Source: an uncultured Verrucomicrobiae bacterium (GTDB lineage Bacteria > Verrucomicrobiota > Verrucomicrobiia > Chthoniobacterales > JAATET01). Taken from it: a stretch of 64,000 bases of DNA. Where the stretch lies: assembly GCA_963719495.1 (NCBI GenBank), contig CAVRCI010000011.1, forward strand, positions 161,340 to 225,339, in the 5' to 3' direction. Of the stretch, positions 19,100-36,764 are shown piece after piece. The notes under the pieces are model-generated. The model was not told where the DNA came from. It saw only the letters and a list, made by a program, of their open reading frames with translations, and ran no database searches. Position numbers and translations under genes: made by a program. The stretch's first letter is position 1; the number at the start of each line of letters is the position of its first letter.

Positions 19100-19178
19100 C
19101 CGCGGAGCTGGGACAAATTCGGACTTGGCAGGAGTGGGAAGCCGTGGCAATTTCCCCGGCTGCCACGGCAGAAGCAGA

Positions 19179-19250
<72 letters not shown>

Positions 19251-19491
19251 GTCTTTCTGAACGACAGCAAACGTCAGGCAATGAGGGGTTTAGGATGGGG
19301 TTACCGAGCTGTTTTCGCGAAAGACTGGAACAGACAGAAAACGACAGGAACGGCCTCGAAACTGTCCCCAAACTGCCCCGCGATTTTAAGATCTCTCAAG
19401 AAAAAGTCGTTTCTGCGAAGCCCCCAGCCTCAGTTTTCGCTTCCTACGTGTAAATCGTTCACTATCAATTGCTAGCGTTGCAATAATGGTC

Positions 19492-20754: not shown

Positions 20755-20947
20755 TCTGGCGGGCTGGTTGATCAGCTAGGGCCGAGAAGGATGCAAGGAT
20801 GTGGTCAACCGCAGAATTGATATCTGCTCGAGTCACCGAATCGAGGTTCAATCTCTCTGCTGTCGCAAGACGCAGAGCACCTTCGGCGGAATCGAGAAGG
20901 GTCTGAACTCGGTCCCGCTGTGACCTGGAAATTGGTGTTCGGGGCAT
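20747..20947 (-). CDS. Small hypothetical protein (66 aa)
   Basis: ATG overlaps the relaxase stop (TGATG) and the ORF end overlaps the DUF3987 start, suggesting translational coupling. Confidence 0.5.
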   Translation of the reverse strand: MPRTPISRSQRDRVQTLLDSAEGALRLATAERLNLDSVTRADINSAVDHILASFSALADQPARQNG

Positions 20948-22862
20948 CAAATTTTTTGTCCCTCCGCTTCTTCGCCAGAGTCCTCGCCGATCTCAACGAC
21001 TTGGTTTGCAGTGAGCTGGATAACGTCATTCCAATCCTTGCCAGCAGTGGGGCAGTCCCGCTCGAATCGATCCGTGACGCCGCGCCTCTCTGCTTCCTGA
21101 CGTAGCTGGGAGTGCATTCGCTCACCCGCCTCGTCGTTGTCGAATGCCGCGACGATCTTCGCCCCGACGCGGATCGCGAGCCGGACGATCAGCTCGACGA
21201 TGCGGAGGCCGAATCCGCCACCGGTGCTGAGGTAAACTGCGTCACTTGGGAGCCCGTGCGCTTGGGCGTGGCTCATGCAGTCTATGGCGGATTCGCAAAC
21301 GACGATCACGCTCTCATCCCGCCCGGGACGACTCATCCACAAGCCCCGCTTGCCGCCCTTGCTGAATCCTTTCGCGTCTGGACCGCGATATTCGTAGCCA
21401 CTCCCACCGGCGATCGAGTGCGCGAAGCGGACCGTCTCGTTCGATCCGAATTCCACTGACTGTGCGAAGTGGGAGAGCGTCTCCTCGGTTAGTGCCCGCG
21501 AGCGGAGGTAGCAGCTCGCGTAAGTCGCACTTTCACGCGATTCCGCCCGAGTCGCTGAATCGCGATGGGCTGGAGCTGCCGCTCTCTTCGGCGGTCGGGA
21601 AAGAAAAATCTGCGCGGCTGGCTCGGGTAATTCCGTCGAAAGTATCTCCGCAAGTCTCCTGCGAACCTCCCCAAGGTTCCCCCAAGAAAGTTCGTTTTGG
21701 CAAAAATCGATGACGCTCCCGCTAGAGCTACCGTTACGGGAAAAATACGTCCAATGCCCATCGTCGGCCCTCATGATGACGATCTCGCGGCTTCTGTCGG
21801 GGTGACGCATCTGGCCAGACCCACCGGAAAGATCGACCACCCATCCGTGGACACCGGCTAGATTTCGTAGGGATATTTCCTTTTTCAATCTGTCGAGATC
21901 TGGGAGCGGTGTTGATTGATCCGATCTGCCGCTTCCTGCGGAGTCAGCCGACACGGAACTCCGTCGATGAGGGTCTCGCCATTTTCCGACCAGATTTTCC
22001 CCACCGTCGCCGGGACGAGCCAAATTCCTCCGACGTATTGGAGGCTGGAGGTCAGTTGTTCGAGCTCGTCGGCGGTTCGCTCGAGTTCTCTCGCGAGCCG
22101 TAGTGCATGCAATGCTGACGAGCGATTCGTCGTCGGCTGTGGCCTCTCTGTTTCGCCGCTTGGATCCATAATTGTATTCGGAGTTTCCTCGCATTGCTGC
22201 GTTCGCTTTTGCGCCAATATGGATTGTTGGAACCAACGGAATGCCGTTTTCTACGTGCGATAAGTGACTCACTCGTTGATCGCACCCCGCACGCTCCAGT
22301 GCTCGGTTGGTTCGGGATGCCCACTCTTCACGCATTCCGACGAGCGCAGCCCGCATCGCTCTGATGTCGGAACTCATGGCGCGGATTTTTTTGGGTCCAA
22401 AGCCGCTTCCATCACACGTTCGCGTGCTCCAAATCAGGTGGGCGTGGTGATTTCGTTCATCACCTTTTTCGTTTGGTTTATGGATTGACCAAGCCACCGC
22501 GCAGCCATGTTGATCGCGCAGCCATGTTGATCGCGCAGCCAGCAGGTATATCCTACCACGAGTCTCCGCCGCTCCGAATCAGATAGCTCATATGGGAGGG
22601 CAATAACCGCAGATCGGGCAACGCACGCGTCACGTCGAATTTCCGCATTTTCGAGGGCCAACGCGAACGACTGTAAGTCTCCATTCCATCCGACAATCCC
22701 GGTTGCCGTGATTTCATCCGCCCGCCGCGAGACCAACCATTTTGGGATCAGTGTCCCGCTTGATTCCTTTAACTGTTCTCCGAAAGCGTATCCCAATGAC
22801 CGTGGAGCAGATTGGTTTTTCGAGCGGCAAACGGGCGTCACGGCTAGGTGGAAGATGGCCAT
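20947..22862 (-). pseudogene. MobA/MobL (MOBQ) relaxase fused to a DUF3991/toprim-like domain, frameshifted by a 17-bp duplication
   Basis: N-terminal part MAIFHLAVTPVCRSKNQSA...ALPYELS; C-terminal part NHHAHLIWSTR, IPLVPTIHIG, VCESAIDCMSH, AFDNDEAG, GKDWND. Removing one GCAGCCATGTTGATCGC copy joins them in frame (632 aa). Confidence 0.85.
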
Positions 22863-22932
22863 CTGCTTATCTTTCCCGACCGCCGAATTGGCAAGCGGCA
22901 GCGCGCCCTCCGAGCACCCGCGAGGCGCATTT

Positions 22933-22968
22933 GTATCGGCGCTCTGGCCGATACCTAATTGCGCTTCC
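22933..22968 (+). other. Putative MOBQ-type origin of transfer (oriT)
   Basis: Inverted repeat GTATCGGC/GCCGATAC followed by TAATTGCGC, directly upstream of the relaxase gene. Confidence 0.7.
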
Positions 22969-23010
22969 GTCAGCAGGCGGAACAGCTGGATTCAGCGATC
23001 TAGCGAACAT

Positions 23011-23277
23011 TTAAGAATCCGTTTCGGGAAGACGATGGATCGGCCCGTCTTGGGCCGGTGGGAGGCACGACTCGATCAATCGGCGTTCACGGTCACGAAG
23101 TGACGGAAGCAGAGTTCGGACTTCTTGTGGCCGCTCCTTCATAAAATAGAGGCCAATAGCCTCAGCTGCTCGCATGACGTGCAGACGTTTGAGGATTTTC
23201 TGGCACTCTTCAGCCTCTTTCGCTCGCTTGATTAGGGCTTGTGCTTGTTCTCGAAGTTGTTGAGGTGATTTTGCCAT
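23011..23277 (-). CDS. Small helical protein, possible relaxosome accessory (MobC/MobS-like position)
   Basis: 88-aa coiled-coil-like ORF next to the oriT; the call is positional only. Confidence 0.5.
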   Translation of the reverse strand: MAKSPQQLREQAQALIKRAKEAEECQKILKRLHVMRAAEAIGLYFMKERPQEVRTLLPSLRDRERRLIESCLPPAQDGPIHRLPETDS

Positions 23278-23584
23278 TTAGTTGTATTTTTTGGTTTGAT
23301 CTGAACTGGCCAGAGGGGGCGGAACTTTGCCTGCTCGTGGAGGATGCTGGCGCGGCTAATTTGTCCTCCATTTCGCAAGCTGCCCTACATGGCCATGGAG
23401 GGGGGATAGCGCCCGACTGTAGGCGCTTAAGGAGCTTCGCAACGTCGGACTCAAGATACTTCGGGTCCCGTGTCGACGGAACGACTGGTCTAATCCAACC
23501 AGCGCGAAGGGAGCGGCGAAAGCGATCGCGCCCGACGATTTTGTCAACTTGAGGGCCTGAAAGCGTCCGTATCGAAAAGCTCAT
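23210..23584 (-). CDS. Putative excisionase-like DNA-binding protein
   Basis: Short basic N-terminal domain (...RAGWIRPV...PKYLESDVAKLL) resembling Xis/MerR-type winged HTH; first gene of the mob operon. Confidence 0.5.
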   Translation of the reverse strand: MSFSIRTLSGPQVDKIVGRDRFRRSLRAGWIRPVVPSTRDPKYLESDVAKLLKRLQSGAIPPPWPCRAACEMEDKLAAPASSTSRQSSAPSGQFRSNQKIQLNGKITSTTSRTSTSPNQASERG

Positions 23585-23586
23585 AG

Positions 23587-23611
23587 CGCATCTATAGAAA
23601 CTATAGATGCG
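23587..23611. promoter_or_regulatory. Perfect 11-bp inverted repeat between divergent genes (putative operator)
   Basis: CGCATCTATAG-AAA-CTATAGATGCG. Confidence 0.6.
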
Positions 23612-23657
23612 TCGGCAAGCCTTTTCTTTTTTGGGTCAGCCCGCTACTTCTCGCGGC

Positions 23658-24059
23658 ATGACGGATCGCCGAAAGAAGACCGCAATGATCTATGAGCGAT
23701 TGGTGGATGATCTCGAAGAGATCTCTGCGGTTCTTCAGATGTCTGGAAATGCGCTCGTCAATGCTGGTCTTGAGTCGCTGTTCAAAGAGATGAAGTCGAA
23801 GAAGAAGCCGGAGGTTCCGGCGATAGTTCAGCTATACAGAAAAGCGACTCGAAGAGATTTAACGGCAGCGGACAAGTTGGTCTTCGGATGGCTAGAATCT
23901 CATTTTCCGGATTGGGCGGCGAAGACTGCCGAATTCCGACGTCTAACCGTGAAAATTGCGAGTGAGTCCGAGGATCTGGACGTCAAAAAAATACAGTCTG
24001 CAGCGGACGCTGCTTGGAAAATCGTCTGCGAAAAAGAAAGGGATGGTGTCCTCAAATAA
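23658..24059 (+). CDS. Hypothetical protein, possible ribbon-helix-helix repressor
   Basis: MTDRRKKTAMIYERLVDDLEEISAVLQMSGNALVNAGLE has a beta-helix-helix pattern; divergent from the xis-like gene. Confidence 0.5.
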   Translation: MTDRRKKTAMIYERLVDDLEEISAVLQMSGNALVNAGLESLFKEMKSKKKPEVPAIVQLYRKATRRDLTAADKLVFGWLESHFPDWAAKTAEFRRLTVKIASESEDLDVKKIQSAADAAWKIVCEKERDGVLK

Positions 24060-26721
24060 CTTTCGTGATTGCAGTAAAATCCAGAGCACTCGGCATCACA
24101 AAAAGGCATTTGCCGCCGCTGCGGCTGGCCCAGATTGCTCCGACGGCCGCTTTATCGGCTGACTCGGAGACGAGGTGGGAACCCTTGTATTCGACTACGA
24201 GAATTCTCCCGTCGGTGAGTTGGCAGACGAAGTCGGGGTAGAACCAGTCGGTGCTGGTTTGGAGGCGAAAGGATGAGCGTTTGCGTGAAAGGTTCCGCAC
24301 CCAGAATTGCACCTCCTTCATGTCGTCGAGGTATTGGGCGCATTGGAATTCTTCGGTGAGGCTGTTGTCCGCTCGCTTCTCCTGGAGTTCACCCGGCTTG
24401 CTGCCGAAGTAATGTTTCTTGAACGCGAAGGCTCCCTCGTAGAGCCAGCCCGGTTCATAGATGGACTCGCGGAAGTTGATCGCGGCGTCCGGCGTCACCG
24501 ATAGTGCGGATTCGGGTAGCAACCAACGATCAAATGCCTGGCTCTGTTCGGCGGCTCGGTGCGTTTGGATTCGAGTTTCGATCTGGTCGCGCAGTCGGAA
24601 TCGGTCGAGGGCGAGGATGCTGACTTCCGTGATCCCATGCTTCGACATCACTCCGGTGATGGCTTTTCGGAGGAACCCCGCGGCTTCTCCGGCGGGAATG
24701 TCGGTGTGACTGATTCGCTGATCGATCCAGCGGATGAGGGCTTCCATCGTCCAGTCGGTGGTTGTCCCGAGACTCAACGCGCTCTGGTGCAACTTCCCGA
24801 CGAAATCCTCGGAACCTTCGGCCTCGGAGACGCTGGCTTTCACGTCGCCCGATTGGGCAATGTCGATGGTTCCGGCTCGGCCCTTGGGACGCAGAAGCGG
24901 GTTGTAGGAATCTGGCAAGCTGGCATCTCGTTCCGATAGCCGCCACGGGTGTTCGAGGAGAATGGACCGCTCGAACTCGAAGAAATCACCATCCTCGTTG
25001 ACCGCGAGAAGCGGGACGATGAAGTCCATTTGTCGCTCGAAGGGTGACGGGGAGAGCGTCGCCGAATTCGGGTCGAAGACGCGGGCGTTTTCGCGCATGA
25101 CGTTGACCGCGCGAGTGATCCGCTCCCGCGCTTCGGTCGTCGTCGCGCATTGCTCGATCTTCGTCGCTTCCGCCTCGTCGAGTGGAACGAGAATGGTCAC
25201 GGCTCCCGTTTCTACGTCAAGCTTGAGCTTGCCTCCCAACGAGCTGACGGCGGCCTTCGCGCTTTCGAGATCCAATTCCGATCCTGGTTCAAGTTGGACG
25301 ATTCGTGGCTGCGATCCCAGCGGGGTTTGGGTCACGGGTATGACGATCCGGTCGGCTTCGGTCTGGGTGAATCCGTTGCTGACGAGCGCATCGCGGAGTT
25401 CGGCGAGGACTTCGCCAATCGCGGCAGACAGCGAGAAGGCGTAGGCGCAGTTCAGGTCGGGATGCGACTTGGGCCGGGCGTTGGGGAGCCGGAGGATCCG
25501 CCCGACGATTTGCTCGATGGCGGTGGCCGAACGGGTCTGTTTGAGTGAACAAAGGACGTAGGCAAACGGACAGTCCCAGCCCTCGCGGAGCTTCTCGACG
25601 GTGATGATGATCCGCACGGGCGACTTGGCGCTGGAAACATCCAGAGCGCCTTTGAGTTCATCCTTCGTGCCGGTCGAGATGAGGATCTGTTCCTTCGGGA
25701 TTCCGTGGTTCGCGGTGAGTTGTTCGCGGAGGGGTTCGCAGGCGTCGATTCGCTCGGCTTGGACGAGAAGGATAGGGCGGAGGTATTCACCGGTGGCCTG
25801 AGCCTCCGAGACTGCGAGTTGTTCGAGGTCGTTCCGTAGCGTGATGGCGTCGGCGACGAGTTCGTCGCGCTGGCTGGGGTCGCGGACGATCACCCGCAAG
25901 GGCAGCTTCACCATGTCCGCCGCCTTCAACTCGGAGGCCGAGACGTAGTGCAGGAGATTCGACGGCGATTTTTTTCGGTCCGGGGTTGCCGTGAATTCGA
26001 CGATGCAGGCCGGTAGGACGCTGGCCAGCGTGGCGAAGGAAAGAGCCGTGCGGGAGTTGTGGGCTTCGTCGACGATCACCACGGGGCGACGGAGCCGAAG
26101 CAGGTTCACGAGCGAGGGAATCGGACGGCCGTCGGGTCCGGGGAGCAATTCCGCCTCCCGCCCGGCTGGGAGGTTGAGGAGGTGCTCCAAGAATACGCCG
26201 TTCTGGGAGTAGACCTTGCGCCCGGTGGTGTCCTCGGCCCGGAAGGCTTGGATGGTCGAGACGATGACAACGGTCTGATCCCGGCTCGTCGAAAACGGGA
26301 GTTGGAGCGCCTCCTCGATGGTCACGACTTCGACTGGCCCGCCGCACGCGGTATTGAGCGCTAGGCGGTAAGGGTGGTTCGGGTCGCGAAGGGCGTCAGC
26401 GGTCTGGGCGAGAATCGTGGTCGTGGGGACGAGCCAGAGGACGATGCCGGTGTCGGCTTGGAGAAATTCCTCGATGGCGATTCCAGCCGCGTGGCAGCCG
26501 AGCAAGGTCTTCCCTCCTCCCGTCGGGACTCGGAGACAGACGAAGGGCATCTCGGTCGAGAAGCCATCCGCTTTGACCGTGAGATACTGTTCCGGGTCGC
26601 GCCCGTTGGCCGCAACGACGTTTCGGTAGGCTTCCGCGACCGGAGTTCCTTTGCCCGCCGCGCGGAGGAAGGAACGGAGCGAATCAAGGACGCGGCCCTG
26701 GTAATCTTTTAGAGCGATCAT
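24052..26721 (-). CDS. res: Type III restriction endonuclease Res subunit
   Basis: LKDYQ, VPTGGGKT, IVDEAH, FTATP, LREGWDCP, EQIVGRILR and C-terminal YPDFV...VVEYKG (PD-(D/E)xK). Confidence 0.9.
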   Translation of the reverse strand: MIALKDYQGRVLDSLRSFLRAAGKGTPVAEAYRNVVAANGRDPEQYLTVKADGFSTEMPFVCLRVPTGGGKTLLGCHAAGIAIEEFLQADTGIVLWLVPTTTILAQTADALRDPNHPYRLALNTACGGPVEVVTIEEALQLPFSTSRDQTVVIVSTIQAFRAEDTTGRKVYSQNGVFLEHLLNLPAGREAELLPGPDGRPIPSLVNLLRLRRPVVIVDEAHNSRTALSFATLASVLPACIVEFTATPDRKKSPSNLLHYVSASELKAADMVKLPLRVIVRDPSQRDELVADAITLRNDLEQLAVSEAQATGEYLRPILLVQAERIDACEPLREQLTANHGIPKEQILISTGTKDELKGALDVSSAKSPVRIIITVEKLREGWDCPFAYVLCSLKQTRSATAIEQIVGRILRLPNARPKSHPDLNCAYAFSLSAAIGEVLAELRDALVSNGFTQTEADRIVIPVTQTPLGSQPRIVQLEPGSELDLESAKAAVSSLGGKLKLDVETGAVTILVPLDEAEATKIEQCATTTEARERITRAVNVMRENARVFDPNSATLSPSPFERQMDFIVPLLAVNEDGDFFEFERSILLEHPWRLSERDASLPDSYNPLLRPKGRAGTIDIAQSGDVKASVSEAEGSEDFVGKLHQSALSLGTTTDWTMEALIRWIDQRISHTDIPAGEAAGFLRKAITGVMSKHGITEVSILALDRFRLRDQIETRIQTHRAAEQSQAFDRWLLPESALSVTPDAAINFRESIYEPGWLYEGAFAFKKHYFGSKPGELQEKRADNSLTEEFQCAQYLDDMKEVQFWVRNLSRKRSSFRLQTSTDWFYPDFVCQLTDGRILVVEYKGSHLVSESADKAAVGAIWASRSGGKCLFVMPSALDFTAITKVI

Positions 26722-28337
26722 GAAGCACGAATCCCGTAGGGGGTCTGTCGGACCGTGATGCCGAGGTCGCCCAGCTTTTCGCTGCTGAGTAGATTTCCCG
26801 CGCAGAAGATCACTTTCGGGCCCTCGAACTTCGGTAGCGCGGCGAGCATCGCCCGAGTGAGGACGTTTCCGCCGTTCCGGGTCTTGTCACCCATGATGCC
26901 ATTAAACAAAAGGTAGATGCCGACCCCGCGATGGGAGCCGAGGAATGGCGTATTCGGCACCCGGTCCTTGGGAAGCGGCGCGCCGGTCTCGGAGAAATAG
27001 ACGTGCCGCGCGAGGTCAGCGAAGCGAACCGTTTCCCGGATTTGGCCGGTTTCGTCGAAGAGCGGCTCCCCGAGTTCGCAGTAGCGGAATCCTCCGCCAA
27101 GGCCTGGCACCTCGACGCCTTTCTGTGAAGTGTAGCCCTCCGCGACGCGCTGAACTCGTTTTGCCGTCACGTCCTTCGCAATTTTATCGTCCAACTCGAC
27201 GATGATGAAACGTCGCGCGGGTTGATCGGGAATTGAGGCGTTCTTCTGGAGCACGGAGTGCGCCGTAGTTCCAGAGCCGCCAAATGAATCAAGGATGAGG
27301 TCGCCGGGATCTGAACCGATTTCAATCACTCGCTCCATCAGACTTTTGGGTTTTGGAGTGATGAAAAGGTCCTGGGATGCTCCTGCCGACATTGCCTGAC
27401 TGAGTTCCTGTTTGGCGTGCCGTGTGCTCCCGACCTCCTTCCAGAGCCAAAGTGTCTGGGGAACTACTCCTGCCCTCACCTCTGAAATGAACCGCTTAAC
27501 CCCGGGGCGGTTGTCTTGGTTTTTGCCCCACCAAATCCGGTTATCTCGATCAAGCTCGCGAAATTTTTCTTCGCTCACTCGCCAGTAACTTCCCGCTGGA
27601 GGACCTTCAATCACTCTGCCCTTTGGCGTTTTGATTGAATACCGCCCTTGAGAATAGAAATTGCGCGCTGCCAAGTCGCTCAAGAGCCATTCACCTCGCG
27701 GGTCGTTGTCGGGGTTCTTGTATCGCGCCACCATCGCCTCCGTTCTGGGAACGCGATTTGGCCTCCAGACTGCTGCGTCCCTCGCGTAGATGAGGATGTA
27801 ATCGTGATCAACGCTCAGATGGACAGCAGTGTTCTTGGGACTGTCCATTTTCTGCCAGATCACGGAGGCGATGAAGTTTTGGCGTCCGAAAATCTCATCC
27901 ATCAAAAAGCGAAGAGATTGGACCTCGTTGTCGTCGATGCAGACGAAAATGGCTCCATCACGCGTGAGGAAATCGCGGAGGAGCCGCAGCCGAGGATACA
28001 TCATGCACAGCCACCGGTCATGGCGGTCGAGGGTTTCGCCTTCCTTGCCGACGACCTTCCCGAGCCATTCGCGGAGAACGGGGCTGTTGACGTTGTCGTT
28101 GTAGGCCCAACCCTCGTTGCCGGTGTTGTAGGGTGGATCGATGCAGACGCATTTCGCGCGTCCGGCGTAGTAGGGTAGCAGGGCTTTGAGGCCGACAAGG
28201 TTGTCCGCTCGAAGGATCAGATTCCCGGAATCGGGATCGCCGCACGCGAGGGATGGAACATCTTTGAGGAGGTGAAAGGGAACCTCCCGGTGGTGATTCA
28301 CCACGGCGTCCTTCCCTATCCAATTCAGCGTCGGCAT
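26718..28337 (-). CDS. mod: Type III R-M DNA methyltransferase Mod subunit
   Basis: MPTLNWIGK, IDPPYNTG, HDRWLCMMYPRL, TPKP, ILDSFGGSGTT (beta-class order); ATGA overlap with res. Confidence 0.92.
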   Translation of the reverse strand: MPTLNWIGKDAVVNHHREVPFHLLKDVPSLACGDPDSGNLILRADNLVGLKALLPYYAGRAKCVCIDPPYNTGNEGWAYNDNVNSPVLREWLGKVVGKEGETLDRHDRWLCMMYPRLRLLRDFLTRDGAIFVCIDDNEVQSLRFLMDEIFGRQNFIASVIWQKMDSPKNTAVHLSVDHDYILIYARDAAVWRPNRVPRTEAMVARYKNPDNDPRGEWLLSDLAARNFYSQGRYSIKTPKGRVIEGPPAGSYWRVSEEKFRELDRDNRIWWGKNQDNRPGVKRFISEVRAGVVPQTLWLWKEVGSTRHAKQELSQAMSAGASQDLFITPKPKSLMERVIEIGSDPGDLILDSFGGSGTTAHSVLQKNASIPDQPARRFIIVELDDKIAKDVTAKRVQRVAEGYTSQKGVEVPGLGGGFRYCELGEPLFDETGQIRETVRFADLARHVYFSETGAPLPKDRVPNTPFLGSHRGVGIYLLFNGIMGDKTRNGGNVLTRAMLAALPKFEGPKVIFCAGNLLSSEKLGDLGITVRQTPYGIRAS

Positions 28338-28390
28338 TGAGCCTTCGCAAGATAGGGAGAGGAGCCGAGCGGCAAATCAAAAAATGCGGA

Positions 28391-28615
28391 TCAGTGGCCG
28401 AGCCGCTTCTTCGCCTTTTCGACGGCTTCGTCGGACCCCGTCAATTCGATCTCGGTTTTGCCACGGCGTTCGACCACGCGGGCTCGTGCGCCGGTCCCCC
28501 GGATCTTGCGGTTAACGTCCTCTCGAGCGGCCGCGAGGATGGACTTTTTGATTTCGCGGTCGAATTGGGATCGATTCGAGATCGAGTGGCCGTTGAGGGT
28601 GATGTCAAAAATCAT
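28391..28615 (-). CDS. Small basic hypothetical protein (74 aa)
   Basis: Clean ORF with protein-like composition between DUF2188 and mod. Confidence 0.6.
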   Translation of the reverse strand: MIFDITLNGHSISNRSQFDREIKKSILAAAREDVNRKIRGTGARARVVERRGKTEIELTGSDEAVEKAKKRLGH

Positions 28616-28670
28616 GAGTTTTTAGAGGATGGGACCGACCGGCCAAGAGCCAATCGGTCCCGGTTCCCTT

Positions 28671-28904
28671 CTAGCCCTTGGATTTGCGAGGGTCGTTTCC
28701 GTAGCTGTATGCCTCGCGGAACTTGCCGTCTTCTCCGTGGATGCGGAGTTCGCCGTGGGTTTGCTTGGCAAGATCCCGACCCCGGTCGATGGCCTCGCGT
28801 TGAGTGCGAGTGACCGCTGAAGCGCGTTCACTGCCCTCCCGTTGGGTTTTCCATCCGCTGCCATCGGCGCGGCTGACGTGGTAATGTTTGCTAGGTGTAG
28901 CCAT
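28671..28904 (-). CDS. DUF2188 domain protein
   Basis: YHV...GWKTQREGSERAS...TQREAIDRGRDLAK...ELRIHGEDGKFREAYSYGNDP. Confidence 0.85.
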   Translation of the reverse strand: MATPSKHYHVSRADGSGWKTQREGSERASAVTRTQREAIDRGRDLAKQTHGELRIHGEDGKFREAYSYGNDPRKSKG

Positions 28905-29127
28905 GATGATGTGTCTTTTTTGAGACCACCTCGGACCTTGACGAAACGTCGGGATTTCCCGACTGTCCCAAACAGCGATACCCATCGTGTCTGAGATTCG
29001 TCCTCCTTCGAGGTGGTTGTTTTTTTGGAGTAGAAGCCGTCCTCGTATCAGCGAAGACGGTTTCTTTTCGGTTGCTGGGTTGACTTGTAAGGTTGACAGT
29101 AGGGTTAGGCAAATCAAAAATATCAAC

Positions 29128-30213
29128 ATGATCCCCGGTGTGAGCGAAATTTTCCCCCAGCGACTTCACCAGGCCCGCGTCATGGCCAAGATGTCCCTGC
29201 GCGAGCTGTCCGCCGCGATGAACGGCTTGGTCTCCTACGCGGCGATCTCGAAGTATGAGAAAGGGGAGATGATGCCGGGTGGCGAGGTCATGGCCGGACT
29301 GTGCACCGCTTTGAAACAGCCCGCCGATTTCTTCTTCCGGGGCTATCGGGTCGAGCTGGACGAAATCAATTTCAGGAAGCGGGTTCGGCTATCGGCCGGA
29401 GAGGAAAATTCGATTCGAGAGCGGGCTCGTGATTTTTTCGAGCGCTACGGGGAGATCGAGCAATTGCTTGGGGCTGAACTCAAATTCGAGCCTTTGGTGG
29501 CCCCGGAGTTCGACGTTTGCGATTTGGAGGGAGCCGAGAGGGCGGCGGAAAGGCTGCGTAAGGAGTGGAATCTCGGCGACGGACCATTGCTGAACGTCCA
29601 TGAGCTGCTGGAGCGTCAGGGGATCAAAGTTCATGAAGCCCAAACCGATGACGAGGCCTTCGACGGATTTTCTGGCCTGGCCGGTGGGAAGCCGGTTGTG
29701 GTGATCGCGCGTTGGTTGAACCAGAACCTGCCGCGTAAGCGCATGACCGAGGTTCACGAGCTGGCGCACATCGTTTTGAGGTTTCCCGCAGGGATGCCGA
29801 AGAAGGAGCAAGAGAAGCTCGTGAGTCGGTTCGCGGGTGCCTTCATGCTTCCCGAGAGCACCTTCCGAAAAGTATTCGGCGGCAACCGGGGGTCGGTCGC
29901 TCTGGGAGAATTGATCTCGATGAAGGCATTCTACGGGGCGTCGATCATGGCGATCATGAAACGCGCTGAGCAGCTAGGGATGATCTCGCCGTCGGTTTAC
30001 GAGCGCTTCTGGATCATCGCGAGCAAGCAGCGCTGGCGGAGCGATGGAGAACCCGGGAATGGAAAATACCTTGGAAACGAGAGCAACGGTCGTTTCCGGC
30101 AGTTGGTGTTCCGCGCTGTCGCCGAAGGGGTGATTAGCTCATCGCGGGGAGCGGGGTTTCTCCAGATCGATCTGGAGTCGTTTCGGAACGATTTTCAGCA
30201 GCTGTTCGCGTGA
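29128..30213 (+). CDS. XRE HTH + ImmA/IrrE (M78) metallopeptidase
   Basis: RLHQARVMAKMSLRELS...AISKYEKG HTH, INFRK, RKRMTEVHELAH (HExxH), FAGAFMLP. Confidence 0.9.
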   Translation: MIPGVSEIFPQRLHQARVMAKMSLRELSAAMNGLVSYAAISKYEKGEMMPGGEVMAGLCTALKQPADFFFRGYRVELDEINFRKRVRLSAGEENSIRERARDFFERYGEIEQLLGAELKFEPLVAPEFDVCDLEGAERAAERLRKEWNLGDGPLLNVHELLERQGIKVHEAQTDDEAFDGFSGLAGGKPVVVIARWLNQNLPRKRMTEVHELAHIVLRFPAGMPKKEQEKLVSRFAGAFMLPESTFRKVFGGNRGSVALGELISMKAFYGASIMAIMKRAEQLGMISPSVYERFWIIASKQRWRSDGEPGNGKYLGNESNGRFRQLVFRAVAEGVISSSRGAGFLQIDLESFRNDFQQLFA

Positions 30214-30222
30214 TCCACTGGA

Positions 30223-30720
30223 ATGAGAGTTGTTGTCGAAGATGCCAACGTCCTCCTCGACCTCGTGCATGGCGAGGTCTTCGCGCTGTGGCTGGGAATG
30301 GACTACGAGCACGTGACGACGCACCTAGTCTGGCAAGAGGTCAGAACGCCCGCGCAACGTGCGAAAATCCAGCCTTTGATCGAGGCCGGTAGCCTCAAGC
30401 TCCAAGATTTCGCCGCACCGGTCTGGGTGGAGATCGTCGAGTTCTCGGAAACCCATCGGGTCAGCATCGCCGACGCGTCCGTCTGGATGGTCGCGCGGTC
30501 CGAGGGAGGAATTTTGCTGTCGGGTGATTTGAAGCTACGTCGCTCCTCCTCATCGACGGGCATTGACGTTCGTGGTGTCCTGTGGGTGTTGGATGAGTTG
30601 ATCGAAGCAGGGAGGATCAACAAAAAGGAAGGGCTGGCTGCGATGGAACGGATGATCGAGCACGGGGCCTTTCTGCCGGTCGACGCGTGCGAAGAACGGC
30701 GAAAACGATGGGCCTCGTAG
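30223..30720 (+). CDS. PIN-domain protein (putative toxin)
   Basis: VVVEDANVLLDL, SIADAS, LLSGDLKLRR, VRGVLWVLDEL. Confidence 0.8.
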   Translation: MRVVVEDANVLLDLVHGEVFALWLGMDYEHVTTHLVWQEVRTPAQRAKIQPLIEAGSLKLQDFAAPVWVEIVEFSETHRVSIADASVWMVARSEGGILLSGDLKLRRSSSSTGIDVRGVLWVLDELIEAGRINKKEGLAAMERMIEHGAFLPVDACEERRKRWAS

Positions 30721-30773
30721 GGTTGTCGCAACCGTTGACGAGAGACCGTCGATCAACAGAACGGGCCTGATGA

Positions 30774-30806
30774 ATCCGCAATAGCGGATATTTCCGCCAT
30801 AGCGGA
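30774..30806. promoter_or_regulatory. Two tandem palindromic boxes TCCGC-NATA-GCGGA (putative XRE operator)
   Basis: TCCGCAATAGCGGA (30775-30788) and TCCGCCATAGCGGA (30793-30806), upstream of the XRE gene. Confidence 0.65.
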
Positions 30807-30830
30807 CGGATGAGAGTCGACTCTCGGCGG

Positions 30831-31064
30831 ATGGCTACTGCACCGCCATCCGAATTGGATCAACAGTTTGCCGCGTTTCTCCAAGGGCTTCTGAAAAAGA
30901 ACGGCTGGAGCTACAACGATCTCGAACGAGCCAGCGGGATCAAGAAAAGCATGCTCCACAATGTCGTGAACCATCAGCGAGGGGCTTCTCTCAGCCTGGT
31001 GTCGCGGGTGTGCAAAAACATGAAGATCGGGCTTCATGAGATCTTCCCAGACGGCCGGGGCTGA
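30831..31064 (+). CDS. Small XRE-family HTH regulator
   Basis: WSYNDLERASGIKKSMLHNVVNHQRGASLSLVSRVC, 77 aa. Confidence 0.8.
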   Translation: MATAPPSELDQQFAAFLQGLLKKNGWSYNDLERASGIKKSMLHNVVNHQRGASLSLVSRVCKNMKIGLHEIFPDGRG

Positions 31065-31087
31065 TGCGGAGACTCCTTGGGGAGGGT

Positions 31088-31831
31088 CTACTTCCGCAAG
31101 CCTTGTGGTTTGAACCGCGCTTTCCCGCATTTGGGGGTGCCGGGTTCGAATTGAGGCGAGTGGTGCCATTCGAGGGAGCCGACGGCGGTGTCAATGATCA
31201 CGTGGTTTGGCGCGGCAGCGTTGAGAACATTCGTCGCTCCGGGATTGAGCAGGCAGGTCTGCCCGGTCGCGCTCGTTCGGAACCACCCGGCCTTTCCCTC
31301 ATACGGCATCTCGTGGAGGTGGCCAGACAGGATGTAGTCAGGTGCACAGATTTCCATAAGCGCTCCCATTTCGTCCTCGTGTTCGTTCGGTGGCACGTGA
31401 GCGAGGGCGATCCACGGGACCAACGGACTGCTTTGTCTGAGGGTCAGCCCGTCGCTCATCGAATCAATTGGCGGGTCCGAATAGGGCACGCACGTGACCA
31501 GACATGAAGAGGCGGGGTCGGTGGGGTCGCCGAAGAAACGAGAGCGTCCGTCGGTGGCAAATTGCGTGTCCCGTGTCATTTTCAAGCCCGCCAGCCACGC
31601 GTCGGCGTCGTGATTGCCGGAACACACCGCAAGCGCGGAACCCGCTCGGTGTAGGAATGAAACGAGCCAGTCTTCGACCCAGGCGATTTGTTCCTCCGCA
31701 GTCGGCTGACCAGACCAGACCGCGAGGAAATCGCCGGACAGGCAGACGAGGTCATAGTTTTCGGCCTGGGTCTGAACCCAGTCGAACCAAGGTCGGTTGA
31801 AATGCAGGTCAGTCGTGTGGAGGATCTTCAC
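31088..31831 (-). CDS. Calcineurin-like metallophosphoesterase
   Basis: GTG at 31831; motifs TDLH, SGDF, SGNHD, HVPP, SGHLH, LNPG. Confidence 0.88.
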   Translation of the reverse strand: MKILHTTDLHFNRPWFDWVQTQAENYDLVCLSGDFLAVWSGQPTAEEQIAWVEDWLVSFLHRAGSALAVCSGNHDADAWLAGLKMTRDTQFATDGRSRFFGDPTDPASSCLVTCVPYSDPPIDSMSDGLTLRQSSPLVPWIALAHVPPNEHEDEMGALMEICAPDYILSGHLHEMPYEGKAGWFRTSATGQTCLLNPGATNVLNAAAPNHVIIDTAVGSLEWHHSPQFEPGTPKCGKARFKPQGLRK

Positions 31832-31852
31832 GAGAAAATTGGGTCGGGAAAG

Positions 31853-31939
31853 TAGGAGCGGCGGGAGTCGAACCCGCATCAGCCGATTATCTATCGCACG
31901 GGGTATAAGCCCGCTGCTCTACCATTGAGCTACGCTCCC
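31853..31939 (-). tRNA. Atypical tRNA-Ile, anticodon TAT (UAU), with a 20-nt variable region
   Basis: GGGAGCG TA GCTC AATGGTA GAGC A GCGGG CT-TAT-AC CCCGT GCGATAGATAATCGGCTGAT GCGGG TTCGACT CCCGC CGCTCCT A; all four stems pair. Confidence 0.88.
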
Positions 31940-32132
31940 TTTGATCAGGAGCGGGGTATTCGAACGAATACGATGGGAGTGGGCTGCACGAGAGAACACG
32001 AACACGAAGGGTCGCAGGTTTCAACTTGGAATCGCACGTCCACTTCCCGCAGAAGTTTAATCAGCCCTTGCTTGCGGAGCGCCACGGTGTCCGCAGTCGC
32101 GCCTACTTGGCATGGTATCCGCGGCGAGATTT

Positions 32133-32534
32133 TTACTCCACCTTGTAGGCCGGGCCAGCCGGATAGAAGAGATACTCGCTGGGGAAGGACTGTCCGCCGA
32201 AGGTGGAGTCCGGACTCAGGTGAAAGAAGATGTAAGATTCGATCCGGTGAGCCGAAAGAAACGCTGGAACGATGGGAACGGTCTGAACCTCGGGATCGGA
32301 CGAAACGTCAGTCAATTCTGCTGGCTCGCTCCACTCGGAGCCCTCCAATCGAGAAACCGTAAACGTCTCACCGGTCTGCTCGATTTTCAGCGTAACGGGA
32401 CCATCGGGAGACTGGGAGTAGTTACCGGAAATGTCGTCGGCGTTTGCGATCACGGCGATCAGAACCGCCGACAGGACAGTGAAGGAGGTCCGAAGCCGCT
32501 TGAGGAAGAAGGTGTAATGCATTGGTGTTTTCAT
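32133..32534 (-). CDS. Hypothetical secreted protein
   Basis: Signal-peptide-like N-terminus (...VLSAVLIAVIANA) and acidic mature part. Confidence 0.55.
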   Translation of the reverse strand: MKTPMHYTFFLKRLRTSFTVLSAVLIAVIANADDISGNYSQSPDGPVTLKIEQTGETFTVSRLEGSEWSEPAELTDVSSDPEVQTVPIVPAFLSAHRIESYIFFHLSPDSTFGGQSFPSEYLFYPAGPAYKVE

Positions 32535-32552
32535 TTCGGTGTGGCGGGAGTT

Positions 32553-33128
32553 CTAGCGATTCGACCCGGCGACTGGAACGCCTGCCTGGCCTCTGTAGTC
32601 GCCGACGAAGGGCTTTCCGATCCGGTATTCGGAAGTGATCGTTCGGTCGAAATCCGGTTGCACGGAGCGAGACAACCCCTCCGCGAGTAGACGCTTGCCG
32701 CGAATTCGGATTCGACCAGAACCCGTGAAATCAAAAGGTCCCTTGGCGGTTGGATAGGCGTTGTCGACGGCGCTTCCCTTGAATTTGAAAGTCAGTGCCG
32801 TTTTGGTCAGTCTGTAACGCCCGGGAATGAAAGGTGACAGTTTGTTGGACAAATCGGACCTCACCAGGCAAGTCCCGTCGGCATAGAGAAATAAAAACGG
32901 CGAGGTGCCATACGGGCGGAATGCATACGCCTTGTTCTTCTTCGAGTATTGGATGGTCGGATACGCTGGGCCGTAGCCCTGAGATCCCTGTAGGAAGCTC
33001 GGATTGCTCTCGTAGTAACCGATTTCAGAGGAGACCAAACTTCTGTAACGGCCAACCAGATCCTCGAGCGTCGGGGGTTGGGCGTTCAGAGAGGAGAGGG
33101 TTGCGAAGAACACGATGTATTTGAGCAT
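32553..33128 (-). CDS. Hypothetical secreted protein
   Basis: ATG at 33128, MLKYIVFFATLSSLNAQ signal peptide. Confidence 0.55.
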   Translation of the reverse strand: MLKYIVFFATLSSLNAQPPTLEDLVGRYRSLVSSEIGYYESNPSFLQGSQGYGPAYPTIQYSKKNKAYAFRPYGTSPFLFLYADGTCLVRSDLSNKLSPFIPGRYRLTKTALTFKFKGSAVDNAYPTAKGPFDFTGSGRIRIRGKRLLAEGLSRSVQPDFDRTITSEYRIGKPFVGDYRGQAGVPVAGSNR

Positions 33129-33219
33129 TGGGCGTTGGGTGGTTGTGGTTGGGTTTTTGCTGCGAGAAATATCCTTTTGAAATCGAAATCGGTTGGAATG
33201 GTCCTTCACTCCCGGTTCG

Positions 33220-34128
33220 TCAGATTCTGACGAGATGTGGAAGCAATTCGGTGGGCTGATTCAGTCCAAACTCCCGGGTCGCGATGAGGAGGTCGGTGCG
33301 TAGGCTCGTGAGGGCGGTCATGCCTCCCATTTTCGTCCAGTTAATCGACTCGGGCGCGAGCGGGAAGTCGATTCTCCGAGCGCAAGCAGAGAAACCGAAG
33401 GCGTCCAGGAGGTATGCGGTCTCGGCGAGGTCGGGGTAGTCGAGATACTGGATCTTGAGGTGGAACCGTCGCTTCAGTTCGGGCGAGAGTCCTTCGATTT
33501 TCGATCTGCGATCCAGCGCGTCATGCGTGGTTGGAGCCACATTGAAGCCGAGTGGCTGCCGGTCCTCATCGAACAGTTGCTGCCAAGTGCCGCTGCCAAC
33601 GATCATCAAGCCGCGCTCTACCGCCCGCTCGAGCAAAATGGCAATTTCCGCAGCGTCACACGCAGCGCTATTGACCTTCCTGATGAATCGCCGGTGCGCC
33701 ACGACAGGTTCCCAGTTGATCTTCTTATCGAGGATCTGAAAGAGGTCGTTTTGACAGGCCTTCGCCCACGACTCGGTTGCGCCCTGAAATTTATCCAACT
33801 CGTCGACGTGGAGAATGAGGCGGTCGCTTTGAAGAAGAAGCATCCCGATCCGACACATCGTTGGCATCGTGTCGCCTGCGCCGATGGGGATCCAAGATCC
33901 GTGCGTAACCTGAGCGTATTTTGCCACGGCGCGTTGGGCAGCCCGTTTGACGCTGAAAGACTTTCCGGTGCCGGTCGGACCCGCGATGAGGATGTTGGTT
34001 TGGGGGTCAATCGGGCCATTCCACGAAGTGGCCGAGAAGTGGGTCTCGGCGAACGCCGTAATCCGGTCGGAGACGCGCTTCTGGCTGGAGGTGAGGATGC
34101 AGGTGGCTGGGTATGTCGTTGAGTCCAT
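33220..34128 (-). CDS. Stand-alone AAA+ ATPase (ClpX/HslU-like motifs)
   Basis: NILIAGPTGTGKS, LILHVDELDK, CQNDLFQILD, LSPELKRRF; start codon uncertain. Confidence 0.75.
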   Translation of the reverse strand: MDSTTYPATCILTSSQKRVSDRITAFAETHFSATSWNGPIDPQTNILIAGPTGTGKSFSVKRAAQRAVAKYAQVTHGSWIPIGAGDTMPTMCRIGMLLLQSDRLILHVDELDKFQGATESWAKACQNDLFQILDKKINWEPVVAHRRFIRKVNSAACDAAEIAILLERAVERGLMIVGSGTWQQLFDEDRQPLGFNVAPTTHDALDRRSKIEGLSPELKRRFHLKIQYLDYPDLAETAYLLDAFGFSACARRIDFPLAPESINWTKMGGMTALTSLRTDLLIATREFGLNQPTELLPHLVRI

Positions 34129-34374
34129 ACATTGGTGATACGACCCAACTCGGAGTTTGTTAAATTGGCGACGGGATTGCTCAGATTGGAAGCTATCCGC
34201 CGCAACAGGTGCTTGGACACGTGCTGTTCGGAACGCCGGTGCCGACGCTACAGAGCCTTCGAATGAGGTCGGCAAGGAGGGCTGACGCGAAAGTCGCCTT
34301 CGGCTCGGGCCACGGACGTTGAGAAGACTCATTTCCGAAAATCTGGGATGATCTCCGTGGGTCGTCGGTGGACG

Positions 34375-35436
34375 CTACGGTGTGATTTCGCCGCCAAATC
34401 GACTTTTCGGAACTCTGACGGGAAAAATATGCACGCGGTAAGTGAAGGATTGGACCACTCCGGTTCGATGATCGCCAACTCCTGTAATCGAGACTCGGAC
34501 TCGCTTCTTTTTTCTTCCTGACGTGGCAACGTATTCGGCTTCGTCGATCTTCTCTGAATACGGGTTTGTGCGCAGCTTCCAGCGTGGCTCGAAAACAAGC
34601 GTCGGATCACCGAATCCGGACGGTCGGGCCACAACTCTTGCTCGGACAGTCTTTTTTCCATCGCGCATTCGGACGACCGCGCGGGAAAAATCCGACTCGG
34701 ATTTCGAGAATGACCACCGTCGGTGGACAAGAGTATTCGGGACAAGCCCAGGCGGGGGCCAAGCGACGAACCCATCGCGAGTGGGGATCTCTGGCGGTAG
34801 CCCATATTCGTCCGTCTCGGGATCCGGGTCGTCTCTCTCAGGATGAACCCAAAGCGCGTTGGCCGCATTACCGTTGCGAAAGTCGTAAGCGTTGCCAGAT
34901 CCCATCTCGGTCGACTCCGGGTATAAAATCCATGTTCGGTGGCCGACGTCGGTGTTGTTGTCGCCCGGATCTTCAATGTATCCCGCAATACTCCGAGCTC
35001 CGGTGTAGCCCAGGTGAAGGTTTGAATGACCTGCTGCCTCGAAACCATCGGCTGACCAAAACCGCCAGTTACTCGGCGGCTGGTGGTCGAGATCATTGGC
35101 GGCAGTCATGATCAACGCAGCTGCAGCGGCCTTCTGGCTCCAATCTTCACGAAAAACGACCGGGTTGATTCCAGCCATGGCCCTGTAAAAGTTGATGGCG
35201 TTCAAGGTGGCCGTCTGGAACGTCGCTGAAACCGGACCAGGTTGCCCTGTTCTGAAGGAGCCTTGCCATTGCGGCTTGGGCCGCGTCGTTTTAAGCAGAT
35301 TTTTGTAGGCCCGAAGAACGGAACTCTTGCTGTTCACATTGATGGCCTCCTGAGCATCGATCTGCCCGGCAGCGCATAAAACGGAAAGGACTACCGCCAA
35401 GGAGGCTCGTGATGAGACTTTCGACAGGATGCGCAT
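34375..35436 (-). CDS. Secreted CAP (SCP-like) domain protein
   Basis: Signal peptide; LNAINFYRAMAGI, LDHQP, SNL, VGHRTWIL, MGSG. Confidence 0.8.
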   Translation of the reverse strand: MRILSKVSSRASLAVVLSVLCAAGQIDAQEAINVNSKSSVLRAYKNLLKTTRPKPQWQGSFRTGQPGPVSATFQTATLNAINFYRAMAGINPVVFREDWSQKAAAAALIMTAANDLDHQPPSNWRFWSADGFEAAGHSNLHLGYTGARSIAGYIEDPGDNNTDVGHRTWILYPESTEMGSGNAYDFRNGNAANALWVHPERDDPDPETDEYGLPPEIPTRDGFVAWPPPGLVPNTLVHRRWSFSKSESDFSRAVVRMRDGKKTVRARVVARPSGFGDPTLVFEPRWKLRTNPYSEKIDEAEYVATSGRKKKRVRVSITGVGDHRTGVVQSFTYRVHIFPVRVPKSRFGGEITP

Positions 35437-35451
35437 TAGTTGATTCCATCG

Positions 35452-35469
35452 CATCCGCGATAGCGGATG
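35452..35469. promoter_or_regulatory. Third copy of the TCCGC-NATA-GCGGA palindrome
   Basis: CATCCGCGATAGCGGATG, about 16 bp upstream of the CAP gene start. Confidence 0.6.
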
Positions 35470-35506
35470 GCAACTTGAAACGAAATTGCGAGGCCCCCGG
35501 CGGAGA

Positions 35507-36664
35507 TCACTGGCTTGGTTCCGCGAGGTCACCAACTCGCGGAAGGATAGCCCAGAATTTCTCGGCGTCTTCGGTCCGCACAACCTCGCGGTAGTGCTGG
35601 ATGATCACTTGCGGGGAGTTCCCCATCTCAAGCGCGGTTTGGCCTTCCTCTCGAAAGTGGGCGAGGTGGTAGGACCCAAACGTGTGACGGAGAATATCGC
35701 GCTTCCAGGGCTTGAGTTTTGCGATCTCCTGGAGGCGTTCGTGACACTTGCGGGCGAGCGGGGGCACCACCGCCCCCTCTTCCCTGGCGAGCGGTTTGAG
35801 CCAATCGCGCAAGTTCGAAGAAATTTTTACCAGCCGGTTTTGCCGGGAACGCTGTTTTCGCGCCGACACCCTAAGGTGCGGGTTGGGTGTGTCGATCTCC
35901 ACGTGTGACCAGTCCAGCCGGTCGAGTTCGGACGCGCGGATTCCGGCGAAGAGCTGGATCGCCAGCGCGGCGAGATAGGGGCGGCAAATTGGATCATCGA
36001 CGCATACCGCCATGATGTTGCGGCTCTGATCCAACGAGAGGATGGATACCGGGGACTCGATCTCACGGGTGATCTCGATGTGCTCGGTCGGCGTGTCATT
36101 TCTCCACCCACGCTTGACCGAGTAGGCGAAAAACGACGAGAGATGCCTCAAGGCGATGTTCCGGCTGCTCGTTCGGGGCCACGTCGCCAAGACCGTTCGG
36201 AACTGCGCCTCGGTCACCTCGTGAACTGCGATCTTGTCGGGTAGAGTTTCTCGGAGCCGTTTGAGAAAGACCGTGTAGGAACTGATCGTGGCCTTGGCGC
36301 GGCCGCGTTCCTTCCGCGATTCGAGGAACGTCTTGATTCCGTCGGTGAGTGCAACGGTGTCCTCCTTCCGGCGAAAGCTCTTCACCGCCTGATCGACAAC
36401 CCCCGTCAGCGTCAGCCCCGTTCCCTCGAGCCGATGGAATGCATTGAGGGCTTCGGCGGTCTGCGAAACGGTGAGCTGGAAGGCAGCGGTGCCGAGCGCG
36501 GCGCGTTTCGCTTGCTCTTCCTCGAAAACTTGGTCCGCCTTCCTCTTGGTATCGAACTTCTGGCGGGTGACGGGTCCACCAGTGTATCGCTTCCCCATGC
36601 GGAGGACCCAGTAGGCACCATCTTGGTAAACATTGACGCCGGAGGGATATTTTTTCTTCGCCAC
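35507..36664 (-). CDS. int: Tyrosine recombinase / integrase
   Basis: AGIRASEL, LRHTFGSYH, MGNS...HY catalytic motifs; adjacent to the att repeat. Confidence 0.92.
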   Translation of the reverse strand: MAKKKYPSGVNVYQDGAYWVLRMGKRYTGGPVTRQKFDTKRKADQVFEEEQAKRAALGTAAFQLTVSQTAEALNAFHRLEGTGLTLTGVVDQAVKSFRRKEDTVALTDGIKTFLESRKERGRAKATISSYTVFLKRLRETLPDKIAVHEVTEAQFRTVLATWPRTSSRNIALRHLSSFFAYSVKRGWRNDTPTEHIEITREIESPVSILSLDQSRNIMAVCVDDPICRPYLAALAIQLFAGIRASELDRLDWSHVEIDTPNPHLRVSARKQRSRQNRLVKISSNLRDWLKPLAREEGAVVPPLARKCHERLQEIAKLKPWKRDILRHTFGSYHLAHFREEGQTALEMGNSPQVIIQHYREVVRTEDAEKFWAILPRVGDLAEPSQ

Positions 36665-36717
36665 AGCCTGAAACTGTCCCGAAACTGCCCCAGAAAGTCA
36701 AATCACTCTGTGGATTT

Positions 36718-36764
36718 GTTGACTCTTAATCAATTGGTTCCCGGTTCGAGCCCGGGGGGGTGCA
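36718..36764 (+). repeat. att site: duplicate of the 3' 47 bp of tRNA-Lys
   Basis: GTTGACTCTTAATCAATTGGTTCCCGGTTCGAGCCCGGGGGGGTGCA, identical to 19204-19250. Confidence 0.95.

Follow-up and report, generated by a model that had tools for sequence, protein, structure and literature searches.

We found that the extra arm of a bacterial tRNA gene, whose main feature an earlier sequence-only reading had overlooked, shows the triplet GAU in a loop of anticodon size. The gene is a tRNA-Ile(UAU) of 87 nt (31853–31939, minus strand) with two anticodon-like arms, and lies in the 64,000-nucleotide stretch of an uncultured Verrucomicrobiae bacterium that we analysed (the window). It belongs to a widespread gene family, carried by phages, plasmids and tRNA arrays, in which a class I tRNA core bears two hairpins. 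The best explanation, to which we give a probability of roughly 0.55 from sequence comparison, is that the UAU arm reads AUA and that isoleucine charging would proceed via the GAU second arm. That the family decodes AUA as isoleucine is probable.

ARAGORN called a tRNA-Ile(tat) at 31852–31939, and the Rfam RF00005 model matched 31853–31939 on the minus strand with 65.4 bits against a cut-off of 29, confirming the tRNA gene as real. The parse gives a 7-bp acceptor stem with a G1-U72 pair and discriminator A73, a 4-bp D stem, a 5-bp anticodon stem closing the loop CU-UAU-AC, a variable region of 20 nt and a 5-bp T stem. The minimum-energy fold is also the cloverleaf (−34.1 kcal/mol, z only −1.36), so that the 87-nt cloverleaf described earlier was borne out in these features. 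CCA is absent from the encoded 3′ end, while the UAU anticodon, A37 and A73 are all gene-encoded. The first, decoding-type arm (31898–31914, minus strand) has 5 bp and the loop CUUAUAC, with UAU at 31905–31907. The second arm (31882–31897, minus strand) presents the 7-nt loop UAGAUAA (31887–31893), with GAU at 31889–31891, on a stem of three base pairs and a further pair that spans a bulged G. It is followed by a class I-type variable loop (..UGAU; 31878–31882, minus strand) with G46 and with U48 as the partner of A15, an assignment based on 15:48 covariation and G46 conservation in the family. What had been taken for a long variable arm of the Ser/Leu type is thus a second, GAU-bearing hairpin and then a class I variable loop. 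For the CGAU/AUCG pairing proposed for this region, which would enclose 5 nt, the family favours a reading as the stem that closes the 7-nt loop. Nor is the G1-U72 pair a special trait, because the host's own third CAU tRNA and 58 of 143 family members (among the matches listed) also have it. The gene had been called invisible in the open reading frame (ORF) track; a mechanical ORF (31088–31879) in fact overlaps its 3′ end. The Pfam match of this ORF starts just after a GTG at 31831, with which the metallophosphoesterase gene (31088–31831, minus strand) begins 21 nt beyond the tRNA.

The tRNA is present as a single copy in the host genome. BLAST found a full-length copy in one of 60 relatives, a genome of the same family (G012), and none at E ≤ 1e-8 among 400 genomes of the host's phylum; it is therefore not a core gene of the lineage. 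An exact 36-nt search in viral contigs gave no match. The G012 copy is identical at 84 of 87 nt and keeps the same anticodon, A37 and A73, which excludes the sequencing error that had been considered for the anticodon. Its T stem has U-A in place of C-G, a compensatory change, and its flanks are unrelated; this combination points to selection on the RNA. Near the window gene, no sigma-70-like promoter was found (0 found, 0.4 expected). Its 5′ leader repeats 8 nt of the tRNA 3′ acceptor strand (31948–31955), so that in the precursor it could base-pair with the acceptor strand on the 5′ side, and a small inverted repeat lies just upstream (within 31940–31975). The leader of the G012 copy shares only a 7-nt word and CTGAT with that of the window gene, a possible promoter element.

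The gene is carried by a 17.5-kb integrative and probably mobilisable island (19251–36764), as defined by its repeats and gene content. The integration site is the host tRNA-Lys(CUU) gene (19179–19250, plus strand; ARAGORN), whose 3′ 47 nt (19204–19250) form the left repeat; a 100% identical direct repeat (36718–36764, plus strand) marks the other end. The G+C content is 0.577, compared with 0.64 on both flanks. Island genes include a tyrosine integrase (35507–36664, minus strand; PF00589), a MobA/MobL relaxase-Toprim protein (20947–22862, minus strand; the two halves of PF03389, and PF13155), a type III restriction-modification pair (24052–28337, minus strand; res 24052–26721, mod 26718–28337), an Xre-IrrE/ImmA (RmrA-like) gene with a PIN-domain gene that are likely a toxin-antitoxin pair (28987–30720, plus strand), and a gene for a DUF3987 protein. 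The relaxase is split into two overlapping ORFs in different frames (22434–22862 and 20947–22497); the related G012 protein is one ORF of 692 aa (17276–19354 of its locus, L017), and the split may mean that the island is no longer mobilisable or that the assembly contains an error. Just inside both island ends is a 22-nt repeat (19347–19379 and 36670–36691), likely the arm-type sites of the integrase. The G012 copy lies in a low-G+C stretch near a tRNA-Asn gene, with a related relaxase and otherwise different genes. We considered a fixed protein partner for the tRNA and rejected it, since the metallophosphoesterase gene is not found beside the G012 copy.

The host itself has TilS (178 bits) and three CAU tRNAs, which, judging by acceptor-stem features, we take to be fMet, Met and Ile2. 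Its isoleucyl-tRNA synthetase (IleRS) is type 1, with the motif CARCW and Trp, a residue unfavourable to U34, at the site of E. coli W905; we regarded an IleRS as adapted to U34 if it had Arg or Lys at this site or was type 2, and the host enzyme is neither. As the host retains TilS and tRNA-Ile2, the window tRNA is redundant cargo that the host does not need. Any need among the island genes is weak. The ATA codons pointed out earlier at 23823 and 23991 are in frame (ORF 23607–24059), and ATA makes up 12 of 274 island Ile codons (4.4%) compared with 1044 of 53241 (2.0%) in a crude genome-wide ORF set (p = 0.013).

To describe the family, we used a pattern in which the D stem, the UAU loop and the T loop were fixed and the variable region was free. 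Long-arm UAU tRNAs were matched in at least 120 viral and at least 119 genome stretches. We parsed 241 of the matches listed and set aside nine that were broken or cut, eight that were ambiguous (three of which look like true members) and 50 in which the anticodon stem does not close, these being introns of archaea and giant viruses. The 174 kept among the matches listed represent 143 distinct genes with 110 distinct variable regions. Among the matches listed, a GAU-centred 7-nt loop on a stem of at least 3 bp is present in 88 of the 110 distinct arms (shuffles: mean 0.9, maximum 6), and a GA-centred 7-nt loop in 99 (shuffles: mean 4.5, maximum 13). As a control, the GAU-centred loop was found in 63 of 85 long-arm Ile-TAT genes and in one of 104 class II arms of Leu, Ser and Tyr tRNAs; G is third from the end in 73 of the former 85 and 13 of the latter 104.

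Across 32 hand-picked members, two-sided changes occur in all four pairs of the extra helix, with 93% of cells paired, and the helix of the UAU arm covaries in five of five pairs. The fourth pair of the second stem forms in 83 of 93 arms (shuffles: mean 67, maximum 75) and the fifth position pairs in only 13 of 90, giving a stem of only 4 bp. Of 99 members among the matches listed, 64 have 10 nt between the second loop and the T stem and 31 have 9 nt, which is the spacing of an anticodon arm. Among the same listed matches, the 15:48 pair covaries (A-U in 115 and G-C in 24 of 143), with G46 in 131 and A73 in 140 of the 143. In 106 second loops, again among the matches listed, position 32 is a pyrimidine in 105 and position 38 a purine in 101, G34 is present in 100, A35 in 102, and position 36 is U in 88 and C in 16. 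U33 occurs in only 26 of these loops and a purine at position 37 in only 51 (A 44, U 39, C 16 and G 7). U33 and purine 37 are loop bases that the ribosome needs, so that the second loop appears to retain the bases read by a synthetase and to drop those required by the ribosome. We also reversed the viral search, fixing the GA(Y) arm and leaving the first anticodon free: all 79 distinct well-formed matches have UAU as the first anticodon, and none of the 28 matches without U34 had the two-arm form. By eye, we also considered whether the GAU loop might pair with the loop of the UAU arm or with the D loop, and rejected this because the bases required vary (position 37 of the second loop is mixed).

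GAU is the anticodon that isoleucyl-tRNA synthetase normally recognises; most simply, then, the GAU arm would restore the identity that is lost with U34. The two hairpins together occupy the interval from position 26 to the class I variable loop. On its 5′ side the UAU arm is joined to the D stem in the normal way, and on its 3′ side the GAU arm is joined normally to the variable loop and the T arm. Because each arm thus has one normal link to the core, it is plausible that the two helices alternate in stacking under the D stem. The GAU arm would then be presented to IleRS, allowing isoleucine charging without TilS modification, and the UAU arm would be presented to the ribosome, where it would read AUA. 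Such a tRNA would depend neither on TilS nor on a U34-adapted IleRS, making it portable on phages, plasmids and islands. We hold it slightly more likely than not that the GAU arm is the IleRS identity determinant. For the full proposal, a natural tRNA class that shows GAU to the synthetase and UAU to the ribosome, swaps them by restacking a five-way junction, bypasses the supposedly essential TilS in hosts whose IleRS is unmodified and has replaced it in Actinomyces, we would put the odds at even.

Several observations weigh against this mechanism. Given the geometry of class I synthetases, an arm placed like a variable arm cannot reach the anticodon-binding site of IleRS without restacking, and the second stem is short at 4 bp. 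The loop centre is GAC, a valine anticodon, in 10 of 110 arms (among the matches listed), and a clostridial arm has GAC, AAC or CAC. Plain UAU tRNAs are common, and two of their hosts have Trp-type IleRS.

Annotated relatives occur in phages of Acinetobacter, Vibrio and Caulobacter and on plasmids of Xanthomonas, and the GAU arm was confirmed in the Acinetobacter copy that we checked and in one plasmid copy. Other tRNA genes are present at 46 of 55 viral and 47 of 56 genome two-arm loci. Many of the Acidobacteriota loci (Pyrinomonadaceae; L139–L216) have tRNA arrays of up to 34 genes in 8 kb, and these arrays hold both the two-arm tRNA and a normal tRNA-Ile(GAU). A Melainabacteria genome (L157) and a Chloroflexota metagenome-assembled genome (L170) contain identical tRNAs in the same array order, suggesting misbinning or recent transfer. 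The clostridial group (L198, L206, L218, L226, L231 and L236) has a different, conserved 3-bp arm, and its hosts, where resolved, have type 2 IleRS and TilS. Two viral members (L053, L116) have a further small hairpin between the UAU and GAU arms, making six stems. Annotation tools label two-arm genes simply 'tRNA-Ile', so that the class has been hidden in plain sight. In the openly accessible literature that we searched, we found no description of a tRNA with two anticodon arms, and this five-armed class is apparently undescribed.

TilS scores below the family cut-off in all 19 Actinomyces carriers and above it in 69 of the 72 other genomes with a long-arm match. Among 121 genomes of the Actinomyces family, the six carriers all lack TilS, and of the 115 non-carriers 109 pass, five give a partial hit and one gives none. 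The non-carrier without a TilS hit (G657, Actinomycetaceae; L440, L450) keeps a third CAU tRNA and has no two-arm gene; its TilS may have been missed or have diverged strongly, or it may use a different route. In four carriers with single-contig assemblies we found two CAU tRNAs and no tRNA-Ile2(CAU), compared with three CAU tRNAs in five TilS-positive relatives. With TilS and, in the four scanned, tRNA-Ile2(CAU) missing, the two-arm tRNA is likely the only AUA reader there, and it has likely replaced tRNA-Ile2 and TilS in this group. Its acceptor stem resembles that of the third CAU tRNA of the TilS-positive relatives, and its GAU arm carries compensatory changes between species. The Actinomyces gene (L435, L489–L495) usually adjoins tRNA-Leu(UAA), which likewise reads a rare A+T-rich codon; this arrangement suggests that the pair came together from a mobile element. 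A read-run search with the Actinomyces copy returned only contigs, with small shares, and RNA-library contigs that cover the tRNA are of a kind that cannot show transcription. No report of TilS loss in Actinomyces was found in the same openly accessible literature.

ATA is in use in these genomes: of the 2257 Ile codons aligned across 1.2 Mb of the A. vulturis sequence, 33 are ATA. At 67 aligned ATA positions, pooled from three comparisons that share some positions, the facing residue is Ile in 17, Val in 14, Leu in 11, Met in 6 and Ser in none; for comparison, a true Leu, Ser or Met codon in the Actinomyces pair faces its own amino acid in about 60–80% of cases, and in a TilS-positive control ATA faces Ile in 6 of 16. 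This alignment argues against Ser, Leu and Met, and is only weakly positive for Ile. An apparent excess of Met at ATA in A. vulturis (9 of 21, 12 of 54) came largely from antisense frames, and AUA as Met was rejected because the excess fell to 4 of 33 after a frame filter. TilS-independent AUA decoding, the best-supported of the three ideas of the sequence-only reading, draws its support from these relatives, and does not extend to the window host with its TilS and third CAU tRNA. Two points weigh against our explanation: the TilS loss is confined to one clade, which makes it one event, and Ile is the top match to ATA at only 17 of 67, with Val at 14.

We then compared IleRS types between carriers of two-arm and plain UAU tRNAs. 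Type 1 two-arm carriers with a resolved residue have Trp at the W905 site in 20 of 24 cases, Arg in two and Tyr in two, whereas among ten type 1 hosts of plain UAU tRNAs eight have Arg and two Trp; these counts are not independent, since seven of the eight Arg cases are from one class, and they leave out G510 and G519 (residue unresolved) and G504 and G533 (no IleRS hit). Trp is probably the common bacterial state at this site. Type 2 IleRS was found in three two-arm carriers and in five carriers of plain UAU tRNAs, and Actinomyces has this type; the seven GAC-arm hosts checked are all type 1. Plain UAU tRNAs were matched in at least 120 viral stretches, in five genomes of the host's phylum against one with a two-arm gene, the window host's own (401 genomes), and in eight Bacilli against one (401 genomes); two, with a short variable loop, were found in 301 genomes of the Actinomyces order. 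In two genomes of the host's phylum (G260, G137; L583, L584) a plain tRNA-Ile(UAU) occurs with type 2 IleRS, and no TilS passes the cut-off; they are possibly another TilS-less lineage. Small-genome Bacilli (L482–L488) have a plain tRNA-Ile(UAU) beside tRNA-Ser(UGA), with Arg at the W905 site.

These distributions can be set against published charging data. With E. coli IleRS, charging of a UAU tRNA reaches about 1% of that seen with the lysidine tRNA, and W905R improves it (PMC3575796). The plain UAU tRNA of M. mobile rescued an E. coli tilS deletion only with its own IleRS (PMC4237120). Both IleRS types need G34, A35 and U36, with type 1 less strict at U36 (bioRxiv 10.64898/2026.02.03.703510). 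Bifidobacterium, Mycoplasma and Neorickettsia are named as UAU users (PMC8450103), and PMC9976931 cites Lactobacillus work.

The strongest rival to charging through the GAU arm, in our view possible but unlikely, is that the tRNA-Ile(UAU) is functional and is charged via its UAU anticodon, while the GA(Y) hairpin has another job: it might make the fold more stable, curb misreading of AUG, bring in a modifying enzyme or protect the RNA against nucleases. This rival requires no restacking, and it fits a second loop in which near-complete conservation is limited to G (100 of 106) and A (102 of 106) and the third base is C in 16 (among the matches listed). Actinomyces keeps the arm despite a type 2 IleRS; because five other type 2 hosts carry plain UAU tRNAs, the arm may be unneeded there, which also counts against identity through GAU. 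A role in limiting misreading would suit U34 tRNAs, which can misread AUG on E. coli ribosomes (PMC3575796). UAU charging nevertheless leaves unexplained a 7-nt loop with Y32 (105 of 106), GAU and R38 (101 of 106, among the matches listed) at anticodon-arm spacing, and leaves unexplained how the tRNA is charged in the hosts with Trp-type IleRS (20 of 24).

We consider it improbable that the family is an uncharged look-alike, either a bait that offers both isoleucine anticodons to anticodon nucleases or toxins, or a regulatory RNA. The tRNA-Ile(UAU) of L. plantarum is reportedly uncharged, and the window copy itself, on a defence-type island with a type III restriction-modification system and a likely toxin-antitoxin pair in a host that has no need of it, may be such a decoy. 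Allo-tRNA(UAU) species inactive in E. coli and found near toxin-antitoxin genes also provide a precedent (PMC5389517). A pure decoy is hard to reconcile, however, with the Actinomyces carriers that still use ATA after losing TilS and tRNA-Ile2; moreover, most carriers sit among ordinary tRNA genes, and the protein neighbours of the two closest copies differ, the relaxase excepted.

A mistranslating tRNA, whose long arm is read by LeuRS or SerRS (or by ValRS in the GAC variants) so that AUA becomes another amino acid, is compatible with leucine identity in its A73, A15-U48 and long arm and with Val as the second match to Actinomyces ATA, but appears very improbable given a class I D arm (4 bp), variable loop and G46 that differ from the host's Leu, Ser and Tyr tRNAs, an extra arm unlike theirs, A73 where the host tRNA-Ser genes end in G73, and Actinomyces ATA codons that never face Ser and face Leu only at background level and Met in few cases, far from the self-match of true codons. 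Charging by SerRS or LeuRS, raised in the sequence-only reading, is thus not upheld.

We know of no tRNA that uncouples identity and codon reading by its architecture. If charging through the GAU arm is correct, these two functions would be separable by architecture and not only by base modification, and the family would represent a third solution to the AUA/AUG problem beside lysidine or agmatidine and an altered IleRS. It would explain how an AUA reader can be carried across hosts by phages and islands, and would offer a scaffold for assigning any codon to a synthetase that reads the anticodon. A culturable genus would also join the few bacteria known to lack TilS, which has been proposed as an antibiotic target.

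Among known tRNAs with additional elements, the class II tRNAs (Leu, Ser and Tyr) are alike in having an extra stem-loop between the anticodon and T arms. In class II tRNAs the long arm replaces the class I variable loop, G46 is absent and the D stem has 3 bp, whereas the extra arm of the two-arm tRNA carries a conserved GAU loop and comes before a complete class I variable loop; the window tRNA has a 4-bp D stem and 131 of 143 members have G46 (among the matches listed). In the intron-containing tRNA-Ile(UAU) of archaea and giant viruses, the anticodon stem cannot close until an insert 3′ of position 37 has been removed, while that of the window tRNA closes directly after the loop. The nematode nev-tRNA-Ile combines an isoleucine-type anticodon with a long arm, and its leucylation is a precedent for mistranslation (PMC3333845); nev-tRNAs derive from tRNA-Leu, whereas the two-arm family has a class I core and Actinomyces ATA is not Leu-like. 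Allo-tRNA(UAU) (Mukai et al., PMC5389517; PMC7609411) is similar in its UAU anticodon, its long arm and its location close to mobile elements and toxin-antitoxin genes. The acceptor/T fold of allo-tRNAs is 8/4 or 9/3, and the 32 of 182 supplement rows compared (PMC5389517) show U73 and no GAU loop; the window tRNA has a 7/5 fold and A73.

Closest in function are the tRNA-Ile2(UAU) of Mycoplasma mobile (PMC3575796) and the U34 suppressor of B. subtilis (PMC3919564), which share the encoded UAU, A73 and lysidine-free AUA reading. The absence of TilS and tRNA-Ile2 that accompanies these systems is matched by Actinomyces and not by the window host. They use an IleRS with Arg at the W905 site, and the accessible text describes no extra arm for them; the two-arm tRNA occurs mostly with Trp-type IleRS and rides on mobile elements. 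Bifidobacterium and Neorickettsia, with a UAU tRNA, type 2 IleRS and no tilS (PMC3575796; PMC8450103), resemble Actinomyces, a genus not named in the accessible text of either source.
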